Part shown: positions 7,264-54,000 of the stretch, piece after piece
How positions within the stretch are numbered: position 1 is the stretch's first letter
Layout: each line of letters begins with the position of its first letter
Sequence record: OQ174503.1
Direction: 5' to 3' (one strand)
Source: Escherichia phage REP4
DNA length: 64,000 nt
Notes under the pieces: generated by a model
Database searches by the model: none
Told to the model about the DNA's origin: nothing
What the model saw: the letters and a program-made list of their open reading frames with translations, nothing else
Program-made: the position numbers and the translations under genes

Positions 7264-7866
7264 TTATAGATTAAATCCTTCAAAATCAAGAGTATAGATA
7301 GTGTATGTTGAATGCTTTTTATACTCATATCTATCTGCAATTCTAAATACACTTCCAGCTGGTATCATTACTTCCTGTTCATCTGAAACTAATTCCATAT
7401 TACGATAACGATGGCTATCCGGAAACTTAAAACTCGGACTATATTCTTTACAACGTAGAGCTTTTATAGCATACTCCTGAAAATTAAATACCATAGGAGC
7501 TTTGAATTCAAAAATAACTTGCGTGTTGTATTCTAATCCAGAAGCAAAATGCAGAGCTATATTTTTATCATATGAAGCTGATACTACTTTATCAAATGTA
7601 ATAATATCAATTCCTTGATTTAACACCTGCTTAGTTTCAACTGGAACACCTCTCCAAAGAGGTTTATCGTTTGGAACCAAACGAGATTTGATTATTTCAT
7701 TTAACCAAGAATGATCGTCTGGCTTATTAGTAATACAATGAATTAAAAGTTCAATTTCAGATAAATTAAATCCTTCGGAAAGTAATTCTTCACGAATAGA
7801 AGCACGCACCGATGCATCCATTGATTTGATTTTAAAATCTTTTAATTGCATTGCTGAATATTTCAT
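7264..7866 (-). CDS. modA: ADP-ribosyltransferase ModA (200 aa)
   Basis: 200 aa, tandem with a paralog; Arg and Ser-x-Ser features of R-S-E ADP-ribosyltransferases; T4 gene order. Confidence 0.7.
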   Translation of the reverse strand: MKYSAMQLKDFKIKSMDASVRASIREELLSEGFNLSEIELLIHCITNKPDDHSWLNEIIKSRLVPNDKPLWRGVPVETKQVLNQGIDIITFDKVVSASYDKNIALHFASGLEYNTQVIFEFKAPMVFNFQEYAIKALRCKEYSPSFKFPDSHRYRNMELVSDEQEVMIPAGSVFRIADRYEYKKHSTYTIYTLDFEGFNL

Positions 7867-8486
7867 TCAACTACCTCAATATCATACACTTTAAATGTTC
7901 CAAACGAATCGTGTAATTTTTCTTTTGAAATAGAAGTTATTTTATACTTTCCAATTGGAATCATCCATTCTTGTTCATGTACAATCATCATTAAGTTATC
8001 AGTACGTTCTGAATCTAATCCATCAGTATCTTCATATGTATACTTAAACTCAGTATTAGGAGAAGAAAGTATAATATCGCTGATATGGTCAGAGTAATTA
8101 AAAGCTTTATCAGTTTTTAAGCGAAGTACTATTTCAGTGAAATATTCAGCATAAGAAAAAGAACACGCTGTATGCAAACTAGTAGTAAATGAATCTACTC
8201 TGTTCGTTGAAAACACTTCTCCAACTTGTAAATCTTTAATGAGTTCTTTTGTCGATTTTGATATACCACGATATAACTGATAAGGTGATTCAGTTAAATG
8301 CTTTTTAACGATTTTATTCAACTGCCGATGAAGAGCTTCATTCTTTTTGGCTTCCATACATTGCCAAAGAACTGACTGTTCAAAGTCAGTAAATTTTTCA
8401 CAGACCTTTTTATACATATCATATTGAAAATCAACGCTTTCAGCTTTTATAGATAACTGTTCAACATCTGCGGGATTAATAATCAT
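7863..8486 (-). CDS. modB: ADP-ribosyltransferase ModB (207 aa from ATG at 8486)
   Basis: Paralog of ModA; trimmed start has GGAGG Shine-Dalgarno; 207 aa. Confidence 0.7.
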   Translation of the reverse strand: MIINPADVEQLSIKAESVDFQYDMYKKVCEKFTDFEQSVLWQCMEAKKNEALHRQLNKIVKKHLTESPYQLYRGISKSTKELIKDLQVGEVFSTNRVDSFTTSLHTACSFSYAEYFTEIVLRLKTDKAFNYSDHISDIILSSPNTEFKYTYEDTDGLDSERTDNLMMIVHEQEWMIPIGKYKITSISKEKLHDSFGTFKVYDIEVVE

Positions 8487-8511
8487 GATAGCCTCCATAT
8501 ACTTCAGAAGC

Positions 8512-13321: not shown

Positions 13322-13948
13322 TTAACCTCTATTCATAAAAGCATTAAAAATTTGGTCATCAATAGAAACATTCACTTTAGACTGTTTTTCTGATGGTAAT
13401 TCATATCCACATATTACAATTTTATGATCAATATCAAAATACACAGAAGCAATATGATTAATGATGTTTTCAGTAAAGTCTAAATCAACATCAATATCTT
13501 TTTGACCACAGCCCAAAGGATAAATAATGCGAGTAATTCGATTATCTTTAACAAAGATTCCACCGATATACTCTGTGCTGCGTTCAAAGTCTACACGCCG
13601 ACGAAATGAAAAATATTCAGGCTCTTTATGAGCTCGGCTCATAGGACACAACGAGTAACTAGAATAAGAGATGTCAAATCCTACGCCTTCAATATGAGCC
13701 AAATTATCATGATTAAACCAATTATAATCGTACGCCAAGTCCATTAGATTATAATATGTGAAAGGCACCGGATTAACATCATTAGTCACAAGCATGTAAT
13801 TAGCAACTGCTATAATTTCATTATTTTTAACGAATACAAACCGTGATTGATGTGAATGACCTGGACCTGCGTTTTCACGATTAATGATATAACACTGGGC
13901 ACCTTTATATTTGTACGTGTCTTTGCACTTGTGCATTTGATAAAGCAT
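13322..13948 (-). CDS. Hypothetical protein (208 aa)
   Basis: ORF track. Confidence 0.6.
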   Translation of the reverse strand: MLYQMHKCKDTYKYKGAQCYIINRENAGPGHSHQSRFVFVKNNEIIAVANYMLVTNDVNPVPFTYYNLMDLAYDYNWFNHDNLAHIEGVGFDISYSSYSLCPMSRAHKEPEYFSFRRRVDFERSTEYIGGIFVKDNRITRIIYPLGCGQKDIDVDLDFTENIINHIASVYFDIDHKIVICGYELPSEKQSKVNVSIDDQIFNAFMNRG

Positions 13949-21231: not shown

Positions 21232-23928
21232 TCAGCCAAACAGGAAGTCTAACGAAGCTTTTTCTTCATAGTCCATACCCGCCGATTCACACATACCCGC
21301 AAGCGGTTTAACAAACGATTTTTGGAACAAAGTTGAGTAGTCAATCCAAGATAGTACGTCAGAACGAATTTCTTTTGGAAGTTCCGTACCCGATGGCCAA
21401 GCAATGCACTTGTCACCAAATGGATTTCCTTCACGTAATGGAAGAACCATTACCTTATTTCCATCCAAAATTGGAGCTACACCTAAACCACTAACAGCTC
21501 GACGATAAGTTAACACACCACGAATATGGAACGGGCATTTAAATCCTGGCCAACCTTTATCGTCATATTTCGCTATATCGTTCGCGGTTTTTACTTCAGC
21601 AATAACTTTATAGTCAAGTTGACGATATTCTTTCTCAAAGTTCTTGTAGTATTCTTGGACAGACTCTTCGCCTTCCTGAAGAATACGACGAATACTTTCT
21701 TCGAGAGCTTCTTGTACTGCTTTTGGTGTTGAACTCTGCTGAGTTTCCATACCCATGATTTTTAGATGTGGTTCAGCAAATCGCTTATCTTCCATATCAT
21801 AAACGTTCAGAGCATAACGTTTTTTCGCTTTCCAAAATCCACCAACACCCTTTGAACCAAGTGGAGGGCAAGAAATAGCTTCACGGTCCATATGCATCAG
21901 ATGCTCGCGATTATTCATATAATCACATAACTCACGATATGCAACATCAATCATAGGTTCCATCTTTTTCTTACCAAACTGATTCATGAATTCAACTAAA
22001 TCATTTTGTTCTTTAAAGCGGTCAAGACCTACTTTTTCAATTACTTTATCTACACAAACATATACCGAATCAGTATCACCTGCTGCGATGAAATCTTCAC
22101 CATTAGTTCCACACACTTTATTTAGATACTCATTAATTTTACGAGCAATCCACTGAATACCAACTTGACCGAAAATTGTGATAGCAGTAGCATTTCGCAA
22201 ATCATAGTAACGGAAATGAATATTACCAAGAGCACCATAAAGACTGTTAATAAGAATTTTACGGTTCAGCTGATTTGTGTTAGCAAGTGTAGCTGCTTTT
22301 TCACATTCTTCGATCAGACTATTGAGAACAGATTCGGTGTAATTTGATAGTTCATTTAAGAAATCATCACTGAACTTAACATATCGTTCAACTTCTGGTT
22401 TAGTTGAGCAAGACCCTGCACCTTTCATAATAATCTTTTTAATAGCTTCGGCATTCATTTCTTCAGCGAACATTTTCTTTTTCCAATCTTTACGCTGGAA
22501 AAATACTTTAGCGATTTCCTTTGGAATGATACCTTCTTGGTGCTTATCATACATCCATCCATTCGGAGAGCAAGAATATTCATCACTTGGCTTAGGAGCT
22601 GTTCCTGCGATATATTCATGAATTGGATGAACTTTAAACTGCCCACGAATAGTCTCAGGACTAATGTTAACCTGACGAATAATGCTAGGATACAGAGACG
22701 TCAAGTCAAAACTCATAATGTATCGACGAGCAATCGGTTTAGGTTCAAACACAAATGCACCTGGAAAACTCTGTTTAACGTGCGAACCTTGTTGAGGAAT
22801 AACCTTATGTTCACCTTTCAGTGAGTTAAAAATAATAGCATCCCAAGTTTTAATAGGACTCATTACACCAGAAAAAGGCATTTTAGCATAATAAGACATA
22901 CTTAAAACTAGATCGATAAACCCACGAATTTTATCAATTGCTTGAACTGATTCTACGTCAATGATGTTATAACTAATGTATCGTTGATGATTAGTCTCAC
23001 GAAGTTTATTAATAGGACCATCGTACGGCAATTTACCTTTTTTGGTTTCGTGCTGAGCAACTGATTCCAAAGAGAATGATGGCAAATTAGTAAATGCGAA
23101 TTTTTTGTACAAATCTAAATAATCAAGAATAGATACGCCATCAATCGAATAAATTTCTTTGCTACCGTACATATTTTGAATTAGTTTAGATTTTACTCGA
23201 CCGATTGGAGAGAAGCGTTTCATACTACGTTCACCGAGAACCATTTTAACACGGTTCATGATATACGGAACGTCAAATCCCTCAATATTCCAACCGGTAA
23301 AAATAGCAGGTCGTTTCTGTTCCCAGAGATTAATATATTCCATGAGCATATCACGCTCATTATCAAATGGCATATAAATTACTCGGTCAAGAATTTCTTG
23401 AGGAACTTCATCACCACCTTCACAGTCAAGTTTAGCAGCTAACTTTGCATCCCATTTTGATACTGAACCGTACATTGAATTCAACAAATCAAAGACGTAA
23501 AAACGGTCGTCAATTGAATCATAATGAGTGATAGCATCAATTTCATATTCTGCTTTCATTGGGTCAGGAAATTTATCACCAGTAACCTCAATGTCACAGT
23601 TAGCTACACGAACAAATTTTCGGTCATAAACAATTTCTGAACCATATGTATCACTGATATAAGCGAGTTTAAAATCGTTCATACCGAGAGCTTCGAGACC
23701 GATGTCTTCCATTCGTTTCATCCAATCTCGTGCATCTTTCATTGATGGAAATTTTTGAGGAGCACAGTTTTTACCATAAATGTCTTTGTATTTTGACTCT
23801 TCCTTACAGTGCCTAAACATAGTCGGAAGATATTCTACTTCACGGGTACGTTCCTTTCCGTTTTCATCAATGTAACGCTCAACAATGTTATTTCCGACTG
23901 TTTCGATAGAGATATAAAATTCTTTCAT
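21232..23928 (-). CDS. 43: DNA polymerase gp43 (family B), 898 aa
   Basis: 898 aa; exonuclease and polymerase motifs including YGDTDS; T4-like. Confidence 0.95.
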   Translation of the reverse strand: MKEFYISIETVGNNIVERYIDENGKERTREVEYLPTMFRHCKEESKYKDIYGKNCAPQKFPSMKDARDWMKRMEDIGLEALGMNDFKLAYISDTYGSEIVYDRKFVRVANCDIEVTGDKFPDPMKAEYEIDAITHYDSIDDRFYVFDLLNSMYGSVSKWDAKLAAKLDCEGGDEVPQEILDRVIYMPFDNERDMLMEYINLWEQKRPAIFTGWNIEGFDVPYIMNRVKMVLGERSMKRFSPIGRVKSKLIQNMYGSKEIYSIDGVSILDYLDLYKKFAFTNLPSFSLESVAQHETKKGKLPYDGPINKLRETNHQRYISYNIIDVESVQAIDKIRGFIDLVLSMSYYAKMPFSGVMSPIKTWDAIIFNSLKGEHKVIPQQGSHVKQSFPGAFVFEPKPIARRYIMSFDLTSLYPSIIRQVNISPETIRGQFKVHPIHEYIAGTAPKPSDEYSCSPNGWMYDKHQEGIIPKEIAKVFFQRKDWKKKMFAEEMNAEAIKKIIMKGAGSCSTKPEVERYVKFSDDFLNELSNYTESVLNSLIEECEKAATLANTNQLNRKILINSLYGALGNIHFRYYDLRNATAITIFGQVGIQWIARKINEYLNKVCGTNGEDFIAAGDTDSVYVCVDKVIEKVGLDRFKEQNDLVEFMNQFGKKKMEPMIDVAYRELCDYMNNREHLMHMDREAISCPPLGSKGVGGFWKAKKRYALNVYDMEDKRFAEPHLKIMGMETQQSSTPKAVQEALEESIRRILQEGEESVQEYYKNFEKEYRQLDYKVIAEVKTANDIAKYDDKGWPGFKCPFHIRGVLTYRRAVSGLGVAPILDGNKVMVLPLREGNPFGDKCIAWPSGTELPKEIRSDVLSWIDYSTLFQKSFVKPLAGMCESAGMDYEEKASLDFLFG

Positions 23929-51245: not shown

Positions 51246-51632
51246 TTATTCGAGGGAAAGAAGATATTTACTCTGGTAAAACATTCCAGTAATATCATCT
51301 ATCGTGCTTTGAATGGCTGGAGGCATTTCTTTGTAAATGCTATTAGATTGGTCTAGTATGCGATCAATCATTTTAATTGTGTCGGTAGGAAGTTTACTAG
51401 CATCTGGAATTGAAGGTGTGTATTTTCTACCAGAATACCCCAAATACTGCTCACCAAATTTATCAATCAAATCTGGCAACTCAGAGAAAATAAAATCGTA
51501 TGCCTTGTGTCTAGCATAACTTTTAGTTTCAAAATGCGCAGAATGAAAATAAGCTTGCGCAGCCATTAATAAACCTAAGTATTCATCTGCCTTTGAAGGT
51601 TTTCCACTTTGTGAAAAGTCGCTGAATTTCAT
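51246..51632 (-). CDS. Hypothetical protein (128 aa), rI.-1 position
   Basis: ORF track; ATG overlaps end of rI reading frame. Confidence 0.55.
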
Positions 51633-51923
51633 TCAGTCTCCAATTTAATGTTCATAATTCTAGCGTATGATTGTGCCATCTCCGCGCCTCGTTCTATACA
51701 TTCAAAATCAGAAGAACACGGGTCATTTTTTATAAGTCGTTCGCATAAAACTATAGAACTGTTCAGATGATTCTACGCTTTTATTTTCAAAAAGCATATA
51801 AACGTGTCTAATACCAGATTCCATAAATTTATCAAAATGAGGATCGACATTCGCTTCAATTGGCGGAGATAAAGCAAACGCTAATCCTAGCATGGCAAAT
51901 AGTGCCGTTGCTTTTAAGGCCAT
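51629..51923 (-). pseudogene. rI: rI (lysis-inhibition antiholin) disrupted by +1 frameshift in an A6 run
   Basis: N-terminal 66 aa match RI signal-anchor, then stop after TATAAAAAATGA; next frame continues [32 protein letters not shown] to a stop at 51629. Confidence 0.6.
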
Positions 51924-52190: not shown

Positions 52191-52772
52191 CTAACCGAGC
52201 TTTTTAGTTAATTCATTCCAATGTTTTCTACACAAAGAAACATAAATTTCATCACCAATACAGATTTGATTACCTTCTTTAACTGGTGTTCCATCTTCCA
52301 TTAATCGAGCTGTCATAATCGCTTTTTTACCGCAATGACAAACTGCCTTTAGTTCAATAAGTTTATCTGCAATCGCCAAAAGTTCTTTAGAACCTTCAAA
52401 TAATTTTCCAGCGAAATCAGTCCTTAGACCATAAGCCATAACAGGAACATTATATGTATCGACAATTCGGCTTAATTGATGTACCTGTTCAGTTTTTAAA
52501 AACTGAGCTTCATCTACAAATACACAATGAATATCTTTTTGTGCTTCAGCCCATTTATAGAACTCAAAAATATCCATATCATCCGTAATAATATTCGCTT
52601 CCTGCTTAATTCCAATGCGAGAAACGACTTCACAGACAGAATCACGAGTATCAATAGCAGGCTTAAGAACTAATACACCCATTCCGCGTTCTTTATAATT
52701 ATGCGCAGCAGTCAAAAGAGAAGCAGATTTTCCAGCATTCATTGCTGCATAAGTAAAAATTAAACTCGCCAT
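52191..52772 (-). CDS. tk: Thymidine kinase (193 aa)
   Basis: P-loop AAMNAGKS, VDEAQF Walker B, C-terminal zinc cysteines. Confidence 0.9.
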   Translation of the reverse strand: MASLIFTYAAMNAGKSASLLTAAHNYKERGMGVLVLKPAIDTRDSVCEVVSRIGIKQEANIITDDMDIFEFYKWAEAQKDIHCVFVDEAQFLKTEQVHQLSRIVDTYNVPVMAYGLRTDFAGKLFEGSKELLAIADKLIELKAVCHCGKKAIMTARLMEDGTPVKEGNQICIGDEIYVSLCRKHWNELTKKLG

Positions 52773-52781
52773 ATCACCTTC

Positions 52782-52967
52782 TTAAAGCGTATTCACATAA
52801 GCTATTAATTCGTTTTCTTTCTTATCAAACCGGTCAGCAAATTCTTCCTGTTGTTCGGGAGATAGCGGGCCGTATTCATCATAAAAGGTGTTTGCTTCTA
52901 TATGCTCATCTAGAAGTTCATGGATAAGCTCAAACAATTTATCTTTTTGTTCTTTACTCAGACTCAT
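52782..52967 (-). CDS. Hypothetical acidic protein (61 aa)
   Basis: ORF track. Confidence 0.5.
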   Translation of the reverse strand: MSLSKEQKDKLFELIHELLDEHIEANTFYDEYGPLSPEQQEEFADRFDKKENELIAYVNTL

Positions 52968-53133
52968 ATATTAATTTCCAGAAGTTTTAAAATAATTCGC
53001 TTTTGCTTAAATATTTCCATAGTTAAATGATCAGTATCTTTTTGACCAATTCCGATGGCAAAACCTTTATTAACAGCGAGTTCAATTAAATTATCAAGCT
53101 CACGTAACACTTCATATTGTAACTCAGAACTAT

Positions 53134-53340: not shown

Positions 53341-53549
53341 AACCGTGTAACCTTTAAGCAATATTCTTCTACATGCTGTTTACGACCTTTCTTATCAATA
53401 AAGGTATATTCAACGAATGTTCCAATATAGTCTTTATCTACATCATGTGGACTATTAATTGGGCATTTAGTACGGCAAATGCGTTCCCATTGACGAATAA
53501 TTTCCACTTTGTTTTTAGGATCAAACGGATGCGGGTAATGTGCTTTCAT
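53337..53549 (-). CDS. Hypothetical protein (70 aa)
   Basis: ORF track. Confidence 0.5.
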   Translation of the reverse strand: MKAHYPHPFDPKNKVEIIRQWERICRTKCPINSPHDVDKDYIGTFVEYTFIDKKGRKQHVEEYCLKVTRL

Positions 53550-54000
53550 AATCCACCACTATTAAATCAATATCAGGAGTAAACATGTCGATTAATTTAG
53601 AAACCTTATCCCAATCGCCGCCAGCAATACCGCAACCTATGCGTGGAATATAAATTACTGGTTTAAACAAAAGGGTCTCTGCCTGTAGATTTAATTCTAT
53701 CATGCAGTTTACTAAAGCACCATAATCAAGATTAGGACCCGGTTCGTATTGCGTATAAAGGTTATAGCATATACCAAATCCTGTAGGACTGTGTTTAAAA
53801 ACAATAGACATATCGCCTAATTTATCACGAGAACCGTACTCGGTAGTGGTTTTATCTATTTCTAAAATTTTGGGATAGGCTTTTGCTAATTGACCTGCTA
53901 CGCCAGAGCCCATTGTGTGGAAGCAATTGCACCCGTGCGCAATAATATTACCTTGAAGAAATAGGGCGACAATATCGCCCTTGATATATTTTACAATCAT
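53521..54000 (-). CDS. Macro-domain protein (159 aa)
   Basis: GNIIAHGCNCFHTMGSGVAGQL and IPRIGCGIAGGDW resemble macro-domain ADP-ribose-binding motifs. Confidence 0.55.
   Translation of the reverse strand: MIVKYIKGDIVALFLQGNIIAHGCNCFHTMGSGVAGQLAKAYPKILEIDKTTTEYGSRDKLGDMSIVFKHSPTGFGICYNLYTQYEPGPNLDYGALVNCMIELNLQAETLLFKPVIYIPRIGCGIAGGDWDKVSKLIDMFTPDIDLIVVDYESTLPASV

Follow-up and report, generated by a model that had tools for sequence, protein, structure and literature searches.

A 159-residue protein of Escherichia phage REP4 is probably an orphan anti-DarTG2 ADP-ribosyl glycohydrolase. The protein would act on thymidine-linked ADP-ribose (T-ADPr) in single-stranded phage DNA, by a water-mediated reaction involving a glutamine and an asparagine. 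The gene was found in a 64,000-nucleotide stretch of the phage genome (OQ174503.1), referred to here as the window. It is the long-annotated tk.4 gene of phage T4, already described rather than new. Hence, our analysis mainly confirms existing annotation: tk.4 is marked as A1pp/macro in the T4 record and was tied to DarTG2 evasion in 2025. What we add from sequence comparison is a proposed Gln-type classification of the Tk.4 family, and its proposed separation from DarG and from AdfM of phage PhiKZ. We also add that tk.4 alleles diverge in a cassette-like manner. The findings are of modest relevance to people studying DNA ADP-ribosylation in phage defence.

The reading frame occupies the tk.4 locus

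The window derives from a T4-like (Tequatrovirus-type) phage. On its minus strand, the open reading frame (ORF) runs from ATG to stop and occupies 53521..54000. Escherichia virus KFS-EC3, Yersinia phage ZN18 and many others match the 1.5 kb of DNA surrounding this ORF at 98-99% identity. Neighbouring genes follow the T4 order of tk, tk.3, vs, vs.1 and regB. The arrangement vs, ORF, tk.3, tk is common to the window, T4 and phage RB27, with flanks 91-100% identical to those of RB27 and T4. Within the early tk-vs-regB region of T-even phages, the ORF fills the tk.4 slot. Its place between vs and tk.3 makes it the orthologue of T4 tk.4 by position. The features of the locus are as follows.

53521..54000, minus strand: tk.4 / adfM-type coding sequence, 159 residues, one macrodomain and no extra domains
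53997..54000, minus strand: ATGA overlap of the vs stop codon and the tk.4 start codon, indicating translational coupling; T4 has the same 4-nt overlap
About 12 nt upstream of the tk.4 start, minus strand: GAGGA, a Shine-Dalgarno-like element

A promoter scan gave no enrichment over shuffled sequences (12 found against 13 expected).

The resemblance to T4 Tk.4 extends from locus and ATGA coupling to the protein. The two sequences are collinear over their full length and align without gaps (59% identity and 74% positives over 155 residues, E = 6e-71). All residues that are invariant in the family are common to both. They differ at the C-terminus. T4 Tk.4 has 155 residues, whereas the window protein is 4 residues longer and its gene overlaps tk.3 by 29 nt.

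The product is predicted to adopt a macro fold

In the initial annotation, a macrodomain was proposed on the basis of two Gly-rich motifs. Both are present in the translation: GNIIAHGCNCFHTMGSGVAGQ corresponds to residues 17-37 of the ORF and IGCGIAGGDW to residues 121-130. The strand, previously unstated, is minus. The Pfam Macro model (PF01661) matches the protein with 31.9 bits (E = 1.4e-7), above the gathering score of 22, and the match covers model positions 2-117 of 118. PHROG 335, which carries the label 'phosphatase', matches with E = 5e-72. These matches go well beyond chance.

We modelled the protein with AlphaFold2, using 66 homologues and leaving out the T4 sequence. The model has a pLDDT of 93.9 and a pTM of 0.89. 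Foldseek comparison with the PDB indicates the three-layer α/β/α macro fold, with TM scores of about 0.7-0.84 to TARG1, DarG and Poa1p. The top matches are TARG1, Poa1p, BT1257, DarG from Thermus aquaticus and Mycobacterium tuberculosis, and SCO6735 (E = 1e-9 to 3e-7). Among 164 PDB matches at E ≤ 0.001, macrodomains fill the top, bar a few designed serine hydrolases. The family profile, compared with solved structures, matches BT1257 (E = 4e-20), TARG1 (6e-17) and SCO6735 (3e-16), followed by Poa1p (3e-14), M. tuberculosis DarG (1e-11) and T. aquaticus DarG (1e-9). Judged by domain search and predicted structure together, the ORF is a macrodomain protein, as first proposed.

DarG was the only PADLOC defence model to match the ORF (E = 4e-7). 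It was also the best NCBIfam match (antitoxin_DarG, E = 1e-6), while the O-acetyl-ADP-ribose deacetylase model matched weakly (E = 0.031). We considered that the gene could be a DarG copy captured by a phage, and rejected this. The protein scores 28.2 bits against an equivalog cut-off of 250 bits for NF048014 (antitoxin_DarG). The match spans model positions 2-142 of 338 only, and the protein has neither the C-terminal domain nor the catalytic lysine of DarG.

The predicted active site resembles that of SCO6735

Macrodomain alignments and conservation across 66 family members place the following elements in the window protein.

53926..53937, minus strand: H22-G23-C24-N25, active-site motif
53902..53910, minus strand: G31-S32-G33, first Gly-rich (phosphate-binding) loop, common to all aligned macrodomains
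53749..53751, minus strand: Q84, glutamine in the position of the catalytic lysine, invariant in 66 of 66 members
53611..53646, minus strand: P119-RIGCGIAGGD-W130, second Gly-rich loop; PRIGCGLDRLQW aligned with PRIGCGIAGGDW

Residues H22, G23 and N25 are invariant in all 66 family members, and C24 is found in 63. N25 aligns with N22 of DarG, N23 of PhiKZ AdfM and N27 of SCO6735; H22 aligns with H24 of SCO6735. The functions of N27 and H24 in SCO6735 are described in PMC9411070. Conservation among the 66 homologues is complete or almost complete in both Gly-rich loops, G31-x-G33 and G122-x-G124-x-x-G127-G128. Briefly, all sequences have G33 and 63 have G31, while P119, G122, G124 and W130 are invariant. 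The two loops fit a clamp for the diphosphate and the distal ribose, and binding of ADP-ribose is predicted.

The Q84 column holds K84 in TARG1, K80 in DarG and K78 in PhiKZ AdfM. In SCO6735 the equivalent residue is Gln85. This placement agrees in three independent alignments: the family profile against TARG1, hhalign, and an 8-sequence MAFFT alignment, in which the window protein reads NLYTQ at the catalytic position. In the hhalign comparison, the Tk.4 family matched DarG-type macrodomains with a probability of 98.6% (E = 5e-16).

SCO6735 of Streptomyces coelicolor and BT1257 of Bacteroides thetaiotaomicron have the same HxCN motif as Tk.4, and glutamine at the catalytic lysine position. 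Their PRIGCG[IL]AGGxW loop is near-identical to that of Tk.4, with an overall identity of 25-27%. The glutamine and the asparagine that locks it are both found in Tk.4 (Q84 and N25, equivalent to Q85 and N27 of SCO6735). SCO6735 is a very efficient hydrolase of T-ADPr on single-stranded DNA and rescues cells from DarT (PMC9411070). The Q85A and N27S variants are inactive or nearly so; SCO6735 needs both residues to hydrolyse T-ADPr DNA, and the mechanism put forward for it relies on water and not on a lysine (PMC9411070). Because Q84, N25 and H22 are invariant, and because glutamine also fills the lysine column in BT1257 and SCO6735, the catalytic apparatus of Tk.4 appears to be SCO6735-like and not DarG-like. 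By sequence, T4-type AdfM is thus a Gln-type relative of SCO6735 and BT1257 and would not depend on a lysine as DarG does. Mutagenesis and mechanistic expectations for T4-type AdfM should follow SCO6735, with N25 and Q84 as the residues concerned.

The resemblance has limits. The mobile loop of SCO6735 and BT1257 is about 5 residues longer than that of DarG and TARG1. This extension is missing from the Tk.4 family, which has a 6-residue gap at the loop relative to BT1257 and a 5-residue gap relative to SCO6735. Tk.4 therefore falls outside the SCO6735/BT1257 subclass as defined and forms a sister group that has the catalytic residue in common with it. SCO6735 and BT1257 are also chromosomally encoded, and SCO6735 is basic, whereas the window protein is phage-encoded and acidic (pI 5.0, net charge -5). 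T4 Tk.4 has a pI of 5.9. SCO6735, TARG1 and T. aquaticus DarG have pI values of 8.9-9.5. The acidity of the window protein was unexpected and is mild evidence against simple docking on single-stranded DNA.

Some features of the site count against T-ADPr hydrolysis. The Tk.4 family is without the catalytic lysine of DarG, TARG1 and PhiKZ AdfM, and without the extended mobile loop of the SCO6735/BT1257 type. K34 of SCO6735 is replaced by S32, and K89 falls in the shortened mobile-loop region.

Comparison with DarG, TARG1, PhiKZ AdfM and Poa1p

The macrodomain of DarG (T. aquaticus, 5M31/5M3E; M. tuberculosis, 5M3I) has the same fold as the model (Foldseek E = 2e-8 to 3e-7, TM about 0.75). It also has the conserved asparagine, N22, equivalent to N25 of Tk.4. 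Identity is 19-21% and the substrate is presumably the same. However, catalytic K80 of the T. aquaticus protein is replaced by Q84. Unlike DarG, the window protein has no C-terminal DarT-binding domain, and its gene has no adjacent darT; the neighbours are vs and tk.3.

Human TARG1 (OARD1/C6orf130) is the top structural match of the window protein (E = 1.7e-9, TM 0.72-0.84). The two proteins both have the PRIGCG loop. Conversely, the K84/D125 dyad of TARG1 becomes Q84/A126 in the window protein, A126 occupying the column of catalytic D125. TARG1 cleaves both T-ADPr DNA and uracil-linked ADP-ribose (U-ADPr) on RNA (PMC13036486).

Gene product 104 of PhiKZ, the AdfM of chimalliviruses, is likewise an orphan phage macrodomain that counters DarTG2, and it was independently given the same name as T4 AdfM. 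It removes T-ADPr made by DarT2 in vitro (Cell Rep 2026, PMC13309987). Hence, the activity of gp104 is proven biochemically, whereas support for T4 Tk.4 is genetic. A common family for the two proteins was considered and rejected, as BLASTP between gp104 and the window protein gave only a 23-residue match (E = 0.001). Moreover, gp104 is a close relative of DarG (E = 9e-25 to M. tuberculosis DarG) and keeps a catalytic lysine, K78, in an FPTK motif. T4-type AdfM and its PhiKZ namesake are therefore different lineages.

Yeast Poa1p is an ADP-ribose-1''-phosphate phosphatase, a eukaryotic enzyme acting on a by-product of tRNA splicing. It matches the window protein in sequence (E = 1.8e-9 with the single sequence and 3e-14 with the profile) and in fold. 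The sequence similarity is concentrated in the N-terminal half, over residues 3-79. Here, AHGCNC of the window protein aligns with IHSCNC of Poa1p, and H22 corresponds to Poa1p H23, which is the mutated position of PDB entry 6lfs. Our search of the literature on Poa1p yielded nothing useful on its catalytic residues. Poa1p is the origin of the labels 'phosphatase' and 'Poa1p-like' on Tk.4 proteins, including those in the T4 annotation and PHROG 335. The phage has no evident source of a substrate like that of Poa1p.

T4 tk.4 protects against DarTG2

A role for tk.4 was described in November 2025 in the HIDEN-SEQ preprint, in which a T4 transposon library was screened on a host expressing DarTG2 (bioRxiv 10.1101/2025.11.20.689424). 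The tk.4 gene was the single significant loss on that host, its reads falling specifically there. A clean T4 tk.4 knockout was sensitive to DarTG2, and the gene was needed only with the DarTG2 host. The authors renamed it adfM (anti-DarT factor Macrodomain) and put forward enzymatic removal of ADP-ribose from DNA (bioRxiv 10.1101/2025.11.20.689424). This evidence is genetic and comes from one preprint, one DarTG2 system and the T4 allele only. Previously, T4 lacking both adfA and adfN was found to stay resistant to DarTG2; AdfA and adfA deletions are mentioned there without a gene number (PMC11825919). That resistance had predicted a further factor, and the tk.4 result fits the prediction.

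We favour counter-defence for the ORF because deletion of T4 tk.4 sensitises T4 to DarTG2. In our proposed scheme, the tk.4 (adfM) product, a lone macrodomain, would be synthesised early during infection, its translation coupled to that of vs. The host toxin DarT2 attaches ADP-ribose to the N3 atom of thymidines when phage DNA is single-stranded. Tk.4 would bind the thymidine-linked ADP-ribose and hydrolyse the bond between ribose and base. Replicable DNA would be restored and the DarTG2 defence neutralised. We expect N25 to hold Q84, which would orient the distal ribose so that cleavage proceeds through water and needs no catalytic lysine. The chemistry would resemble that of SCO6735, an ALC1-class protein of the Gln type, rather than that of DarG. 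We infer both that the window allele has the same activity as the T4 allele and that this activity is T-ADPr DNA hydrolysis. The window allele is only 59% identical to the T4 allele used in the screen, and this counts against the inference.

In the initial annotation, host ADP-ribose or NAD-derived defence signals were offered as a possible target. The link to an ADP-ribose-based defence fits, as the T4 orthologue is needed against DarTG2. The nature of the target does not, since this would be ADP-ribosylated DNA rather than an NAD-derived signal.

Divergent tk.4 alleles lie in a near-identical backbone

We used the T4-type phage RB27 as the reference for identities of individual genes and for DNA identity in a sliding window. 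Protein identities between the REP4 window and RB27 are listed below in gene order.

tk: 99.5% identity
tk.3: 91% identity
tk.4: 58.7% identity
vs: 96.5% identity
vs.1: 98.9% identity
regB: 99.3% identity

The DNA comparison places the change within the gene.

53510..53900, no strand assigned: divergent DNA segment, 40-60% identical to RB27 in the sliding window, with vs and tk.3 on its two sides at about 92-100%

DNA identity to RB27 is about 97-100% up to the tk.4 start, drops to 40-60% from about 53890 to 53540 and exceeds 92% again in tk.3. Since tk.4 identity is low while the flanks are near-identical, replacement is confined to the gene, and we interpret this as a gene-sized allele replacement. 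Divergence is uneven along the protein. The N-terminal 48 residues are 85% identical between the window and T4-type alleles, compared with 39% for residues 49-79, 47% for residues 101-115 and 21% for residues 132-155. Active-site segments are kept at about 70%.

By tblastn, relatives of the 159-residue protein were found in 2788 of 50,697 phage records. The window-type Tk.4 has counterparts of 90% identity or more in 318 phage records. The T4-type protein occurs in 224 records at 90% identity or above and in 159 more at 80-90%. Hence, two or more tk.4 alleles, about 59% identical, are common among sequenced T-even phages. Intermediate alleles occur in metagenomes. Only one of the alleles was used in the DarTG2 work, so predicting host range on DarTG2-carrying E. 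coli from the genome sequence alone is not yet safe.

The divergence may reflect selection or ordinary mosaicism. A bolder reading, which we think unlikely, is that tk.4 is an arms-race locus. Divergent alleles (window type, T4 type and intermediates) would be swapped in a near-identical T-even backbone because the protein has functions beyond DNA repair. An acidic, DNA-mimicking surface might, for instance, let it bind certain DarT2 variants and inhibit them, or a host sensor might recognise the protein. Bolder still, the main substrate could be U-ADPr on RNA, or phage-made ADP-ribose or RNAylation marks, with protection from DarTG2 a side effect. If tk.4 is an arms-race locus, different alleles should protect against different DarTG2 systems.

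Alternative activities

Counter-defence could also operate without DNA repair. Tk.4 might block DarT2 by binding, perhaps as an acidic DNA mimic, or might act on RNA carrying uracil-linked ADP-ribose. The acidity of the window protein is compatible with mimicry, and a divergent allele in a near-identical backbone is expected of a protein that contacts a variable host protein. Precedents exist for both modes. DarT is inhibited in vitro even by catalytically dead forms of SCO6735, DarG and TARG1, most strongly by that of SCO6735 (PMC9411070), and U-ADPr RNA is cleaved by DarG and SCO6735 as well as by TARG1 (PMC13036486). However, the strictly invariant residues are those for ligand binding and catalysis (H22, N25, Q84 and the Gly loops), which points to selection for catalysis. 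Variation lies at the periphery, as in ordinary enzyme divergence. We consider a mode of action without DNA repair improbable and prefer T-ADPr hydrolysis on phage DNA.

A small-molecule hydrolase would be another possibility. It could be an Appr1p phosphatase like Poa1p, or could act on O-acetyl-ADP-ribose or on the TIR-derived ADPR signals of Thoeris-type defences. The similarity to Poa1p is significant in both sequence and fold, including the equivalence of H22 and Poa1p H23, and in the T4 record tk.4 carries the annotation 'phosphatase; contains A1pp phosphatase motif'. An acidic surface also suits a small ligand better than DNA, and Iyer et al. suggested that phage macrodomains target soluble derivatives of ADPr (PMC9503650). 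Against this, many macrodomains dephosphorylate Appr1p weakly, as a side activity, and no KptA/Tpt1-type source of Appr1p was noticed around tk.4. Our search of the literature on phage macrodomains against Thoeris and CmdTAC found nothing relevant to Tk.4. A small-molecule substrate would leave the DarTG2-specific phenotype of T4 tk.4 unexplained, and we give this activity little credence compared with hydrolysis of T-ADPr.

ModA, ModB and a second anti-DarT factor

The co-occurrence of the macrodomain with two ADP-ribosyltransferases, reported in the initial annotation, is correct.

7264..7866, minus strand: modA, product 98% identical to T4 ModA; PHROG 832, RNA polymerase ADP-ribosylase
7863..8498, minus strand: modB, product 96% identical to T4 ModB over 207 residues; PHROG 832; T4-length start at 8486

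A Pfam search with ModA and ModB gave no matches, and their identity was settled by PHROGs and by direct comparison with T4. The presence of both genes had suggested that the macrodomain might read or reverse the phage's own marks, which Alt, ModA and ModB place on RNA polymerase, S1, EF-Tu and other host proteins. Alt, ModA and ModB make arginine-linked ADP-ribose, a linkage that is not a known substrate of the macrodomain class of Tk.4. The closest solved relatives act on thymidine-, uracil- or Glu/Asp-linked ADP-ribose (PMC9411070, PMC13036486), and arginine-specific macrodomains such as MavL (cited in PMC13036486) form a separate and unusual lineage. Although ADP-ribose is most often erased by macrodomains, and viral ones co-occur with ADP-ribosyltransferases in many phages (PMC9503650), a role in reading or reversing ModA/ModB marks is very unlikely, given the wrong linkage, the unlinked positions of the genes about 46 kb apart, and the specific loss of T4 tk.4 reads on the DarTG2 host (bioRxiv 10.1101/2025.11.20.689424).

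The window also encodes a homologue of a second anti-DarT factor of T-even phages.

13325..13948, minus strand: gp61.2 / AdfA homologue, 96.6% identical to T4 gp61.2 by tblastn

Gene 61.2 is reportedly adfA (LeRoux et al. 2022).

Anti-DarT genes and the name AdfM

Besides tk.4, named adfM in T4, the window has a further anti-DarT gene:

13325..13948, minus strand: homologue of T4 gp61.2 (96.6% identity)

Hence, the window contains two of the T-even anti-DarT genes. Another gene of this kind, adfN (gene 30.3), which encodes the NADAR factor, probably lies beyond the window, given where it maps in T4. T4 gp61.2 is reportedly AdfA, the anti-DarTG1 factor (LeRoux 2022).

The tk.4 product was also compared with a second phage macrodomain:

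L003 (PhiKZ gp104 DNA), 22518..23006: PhiKZ gp104

The two proteins are phage macrodomains from unrelated lineages. The AdfM of PhiKZ is Lys-type and DarG-like, whereas the AdfM of T4 is Gln-type. In papers of 2025-2026, the name AdfM was given to both. Annotation transfer could go astray through this shared name.

A distant member of the Tk.4 family was found elsewhere:

Vibrio phage Athena, MT460517.1, 106421..106834: Tk.4-family macrodomain

The adjoining gene encodes a ribose-phosphate pyrophosphokinase. This neighbour hints that, in some phages, the Tk.4 family is tied to NAD/ADP-ribose salvage and not to DNA repair.

Both ends of tk.4

53963..53981, both strands: GC-rich hairpin of 8 bp (AGGGCGATATTGTCGCCCT), then a T-rich tail

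Within tk.4, the hairpin occupies codons 7-13, in the 5' part of the coding sequence. In two related phage records, a 'terminator' feature is given under matches to this region. The hairpin may attenuate transcription into tk.4 or account for the conserved 5' end of the gene. At its 3' end, tk.4 shares 29 nt with the beginning of tk.3 (53521..53549), compared with an overlap of 4 nt in T4. The longer overlap is consistent with the tk.4/tk.3 junction being the site of one recombination boundary.

Variation around tk and in rI

52716..52970: second variable patch, adjoining tk (DNA identity to the T4-type phage RB27 down to 40-60%)
51632..51923, minus strand: frameshifted rI (lysis inhibition), with an A6 run around 51725..51730

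No tk.1 homologue was detected, and tk.2 of the window shares only 42% identity with the T4-type protein. In rI, the A5 run of T4 (TATAAAAATGAC) is replaced by A6 (TATAAAAAATGA). Consequently, the open reading frame stops after 66 aa rather than 97. This is either a true rI (rapid-lysis) mutation or a sequencing error in the homopolymer. The part of rI 3' of the run retains 100% identity, in a different frame.
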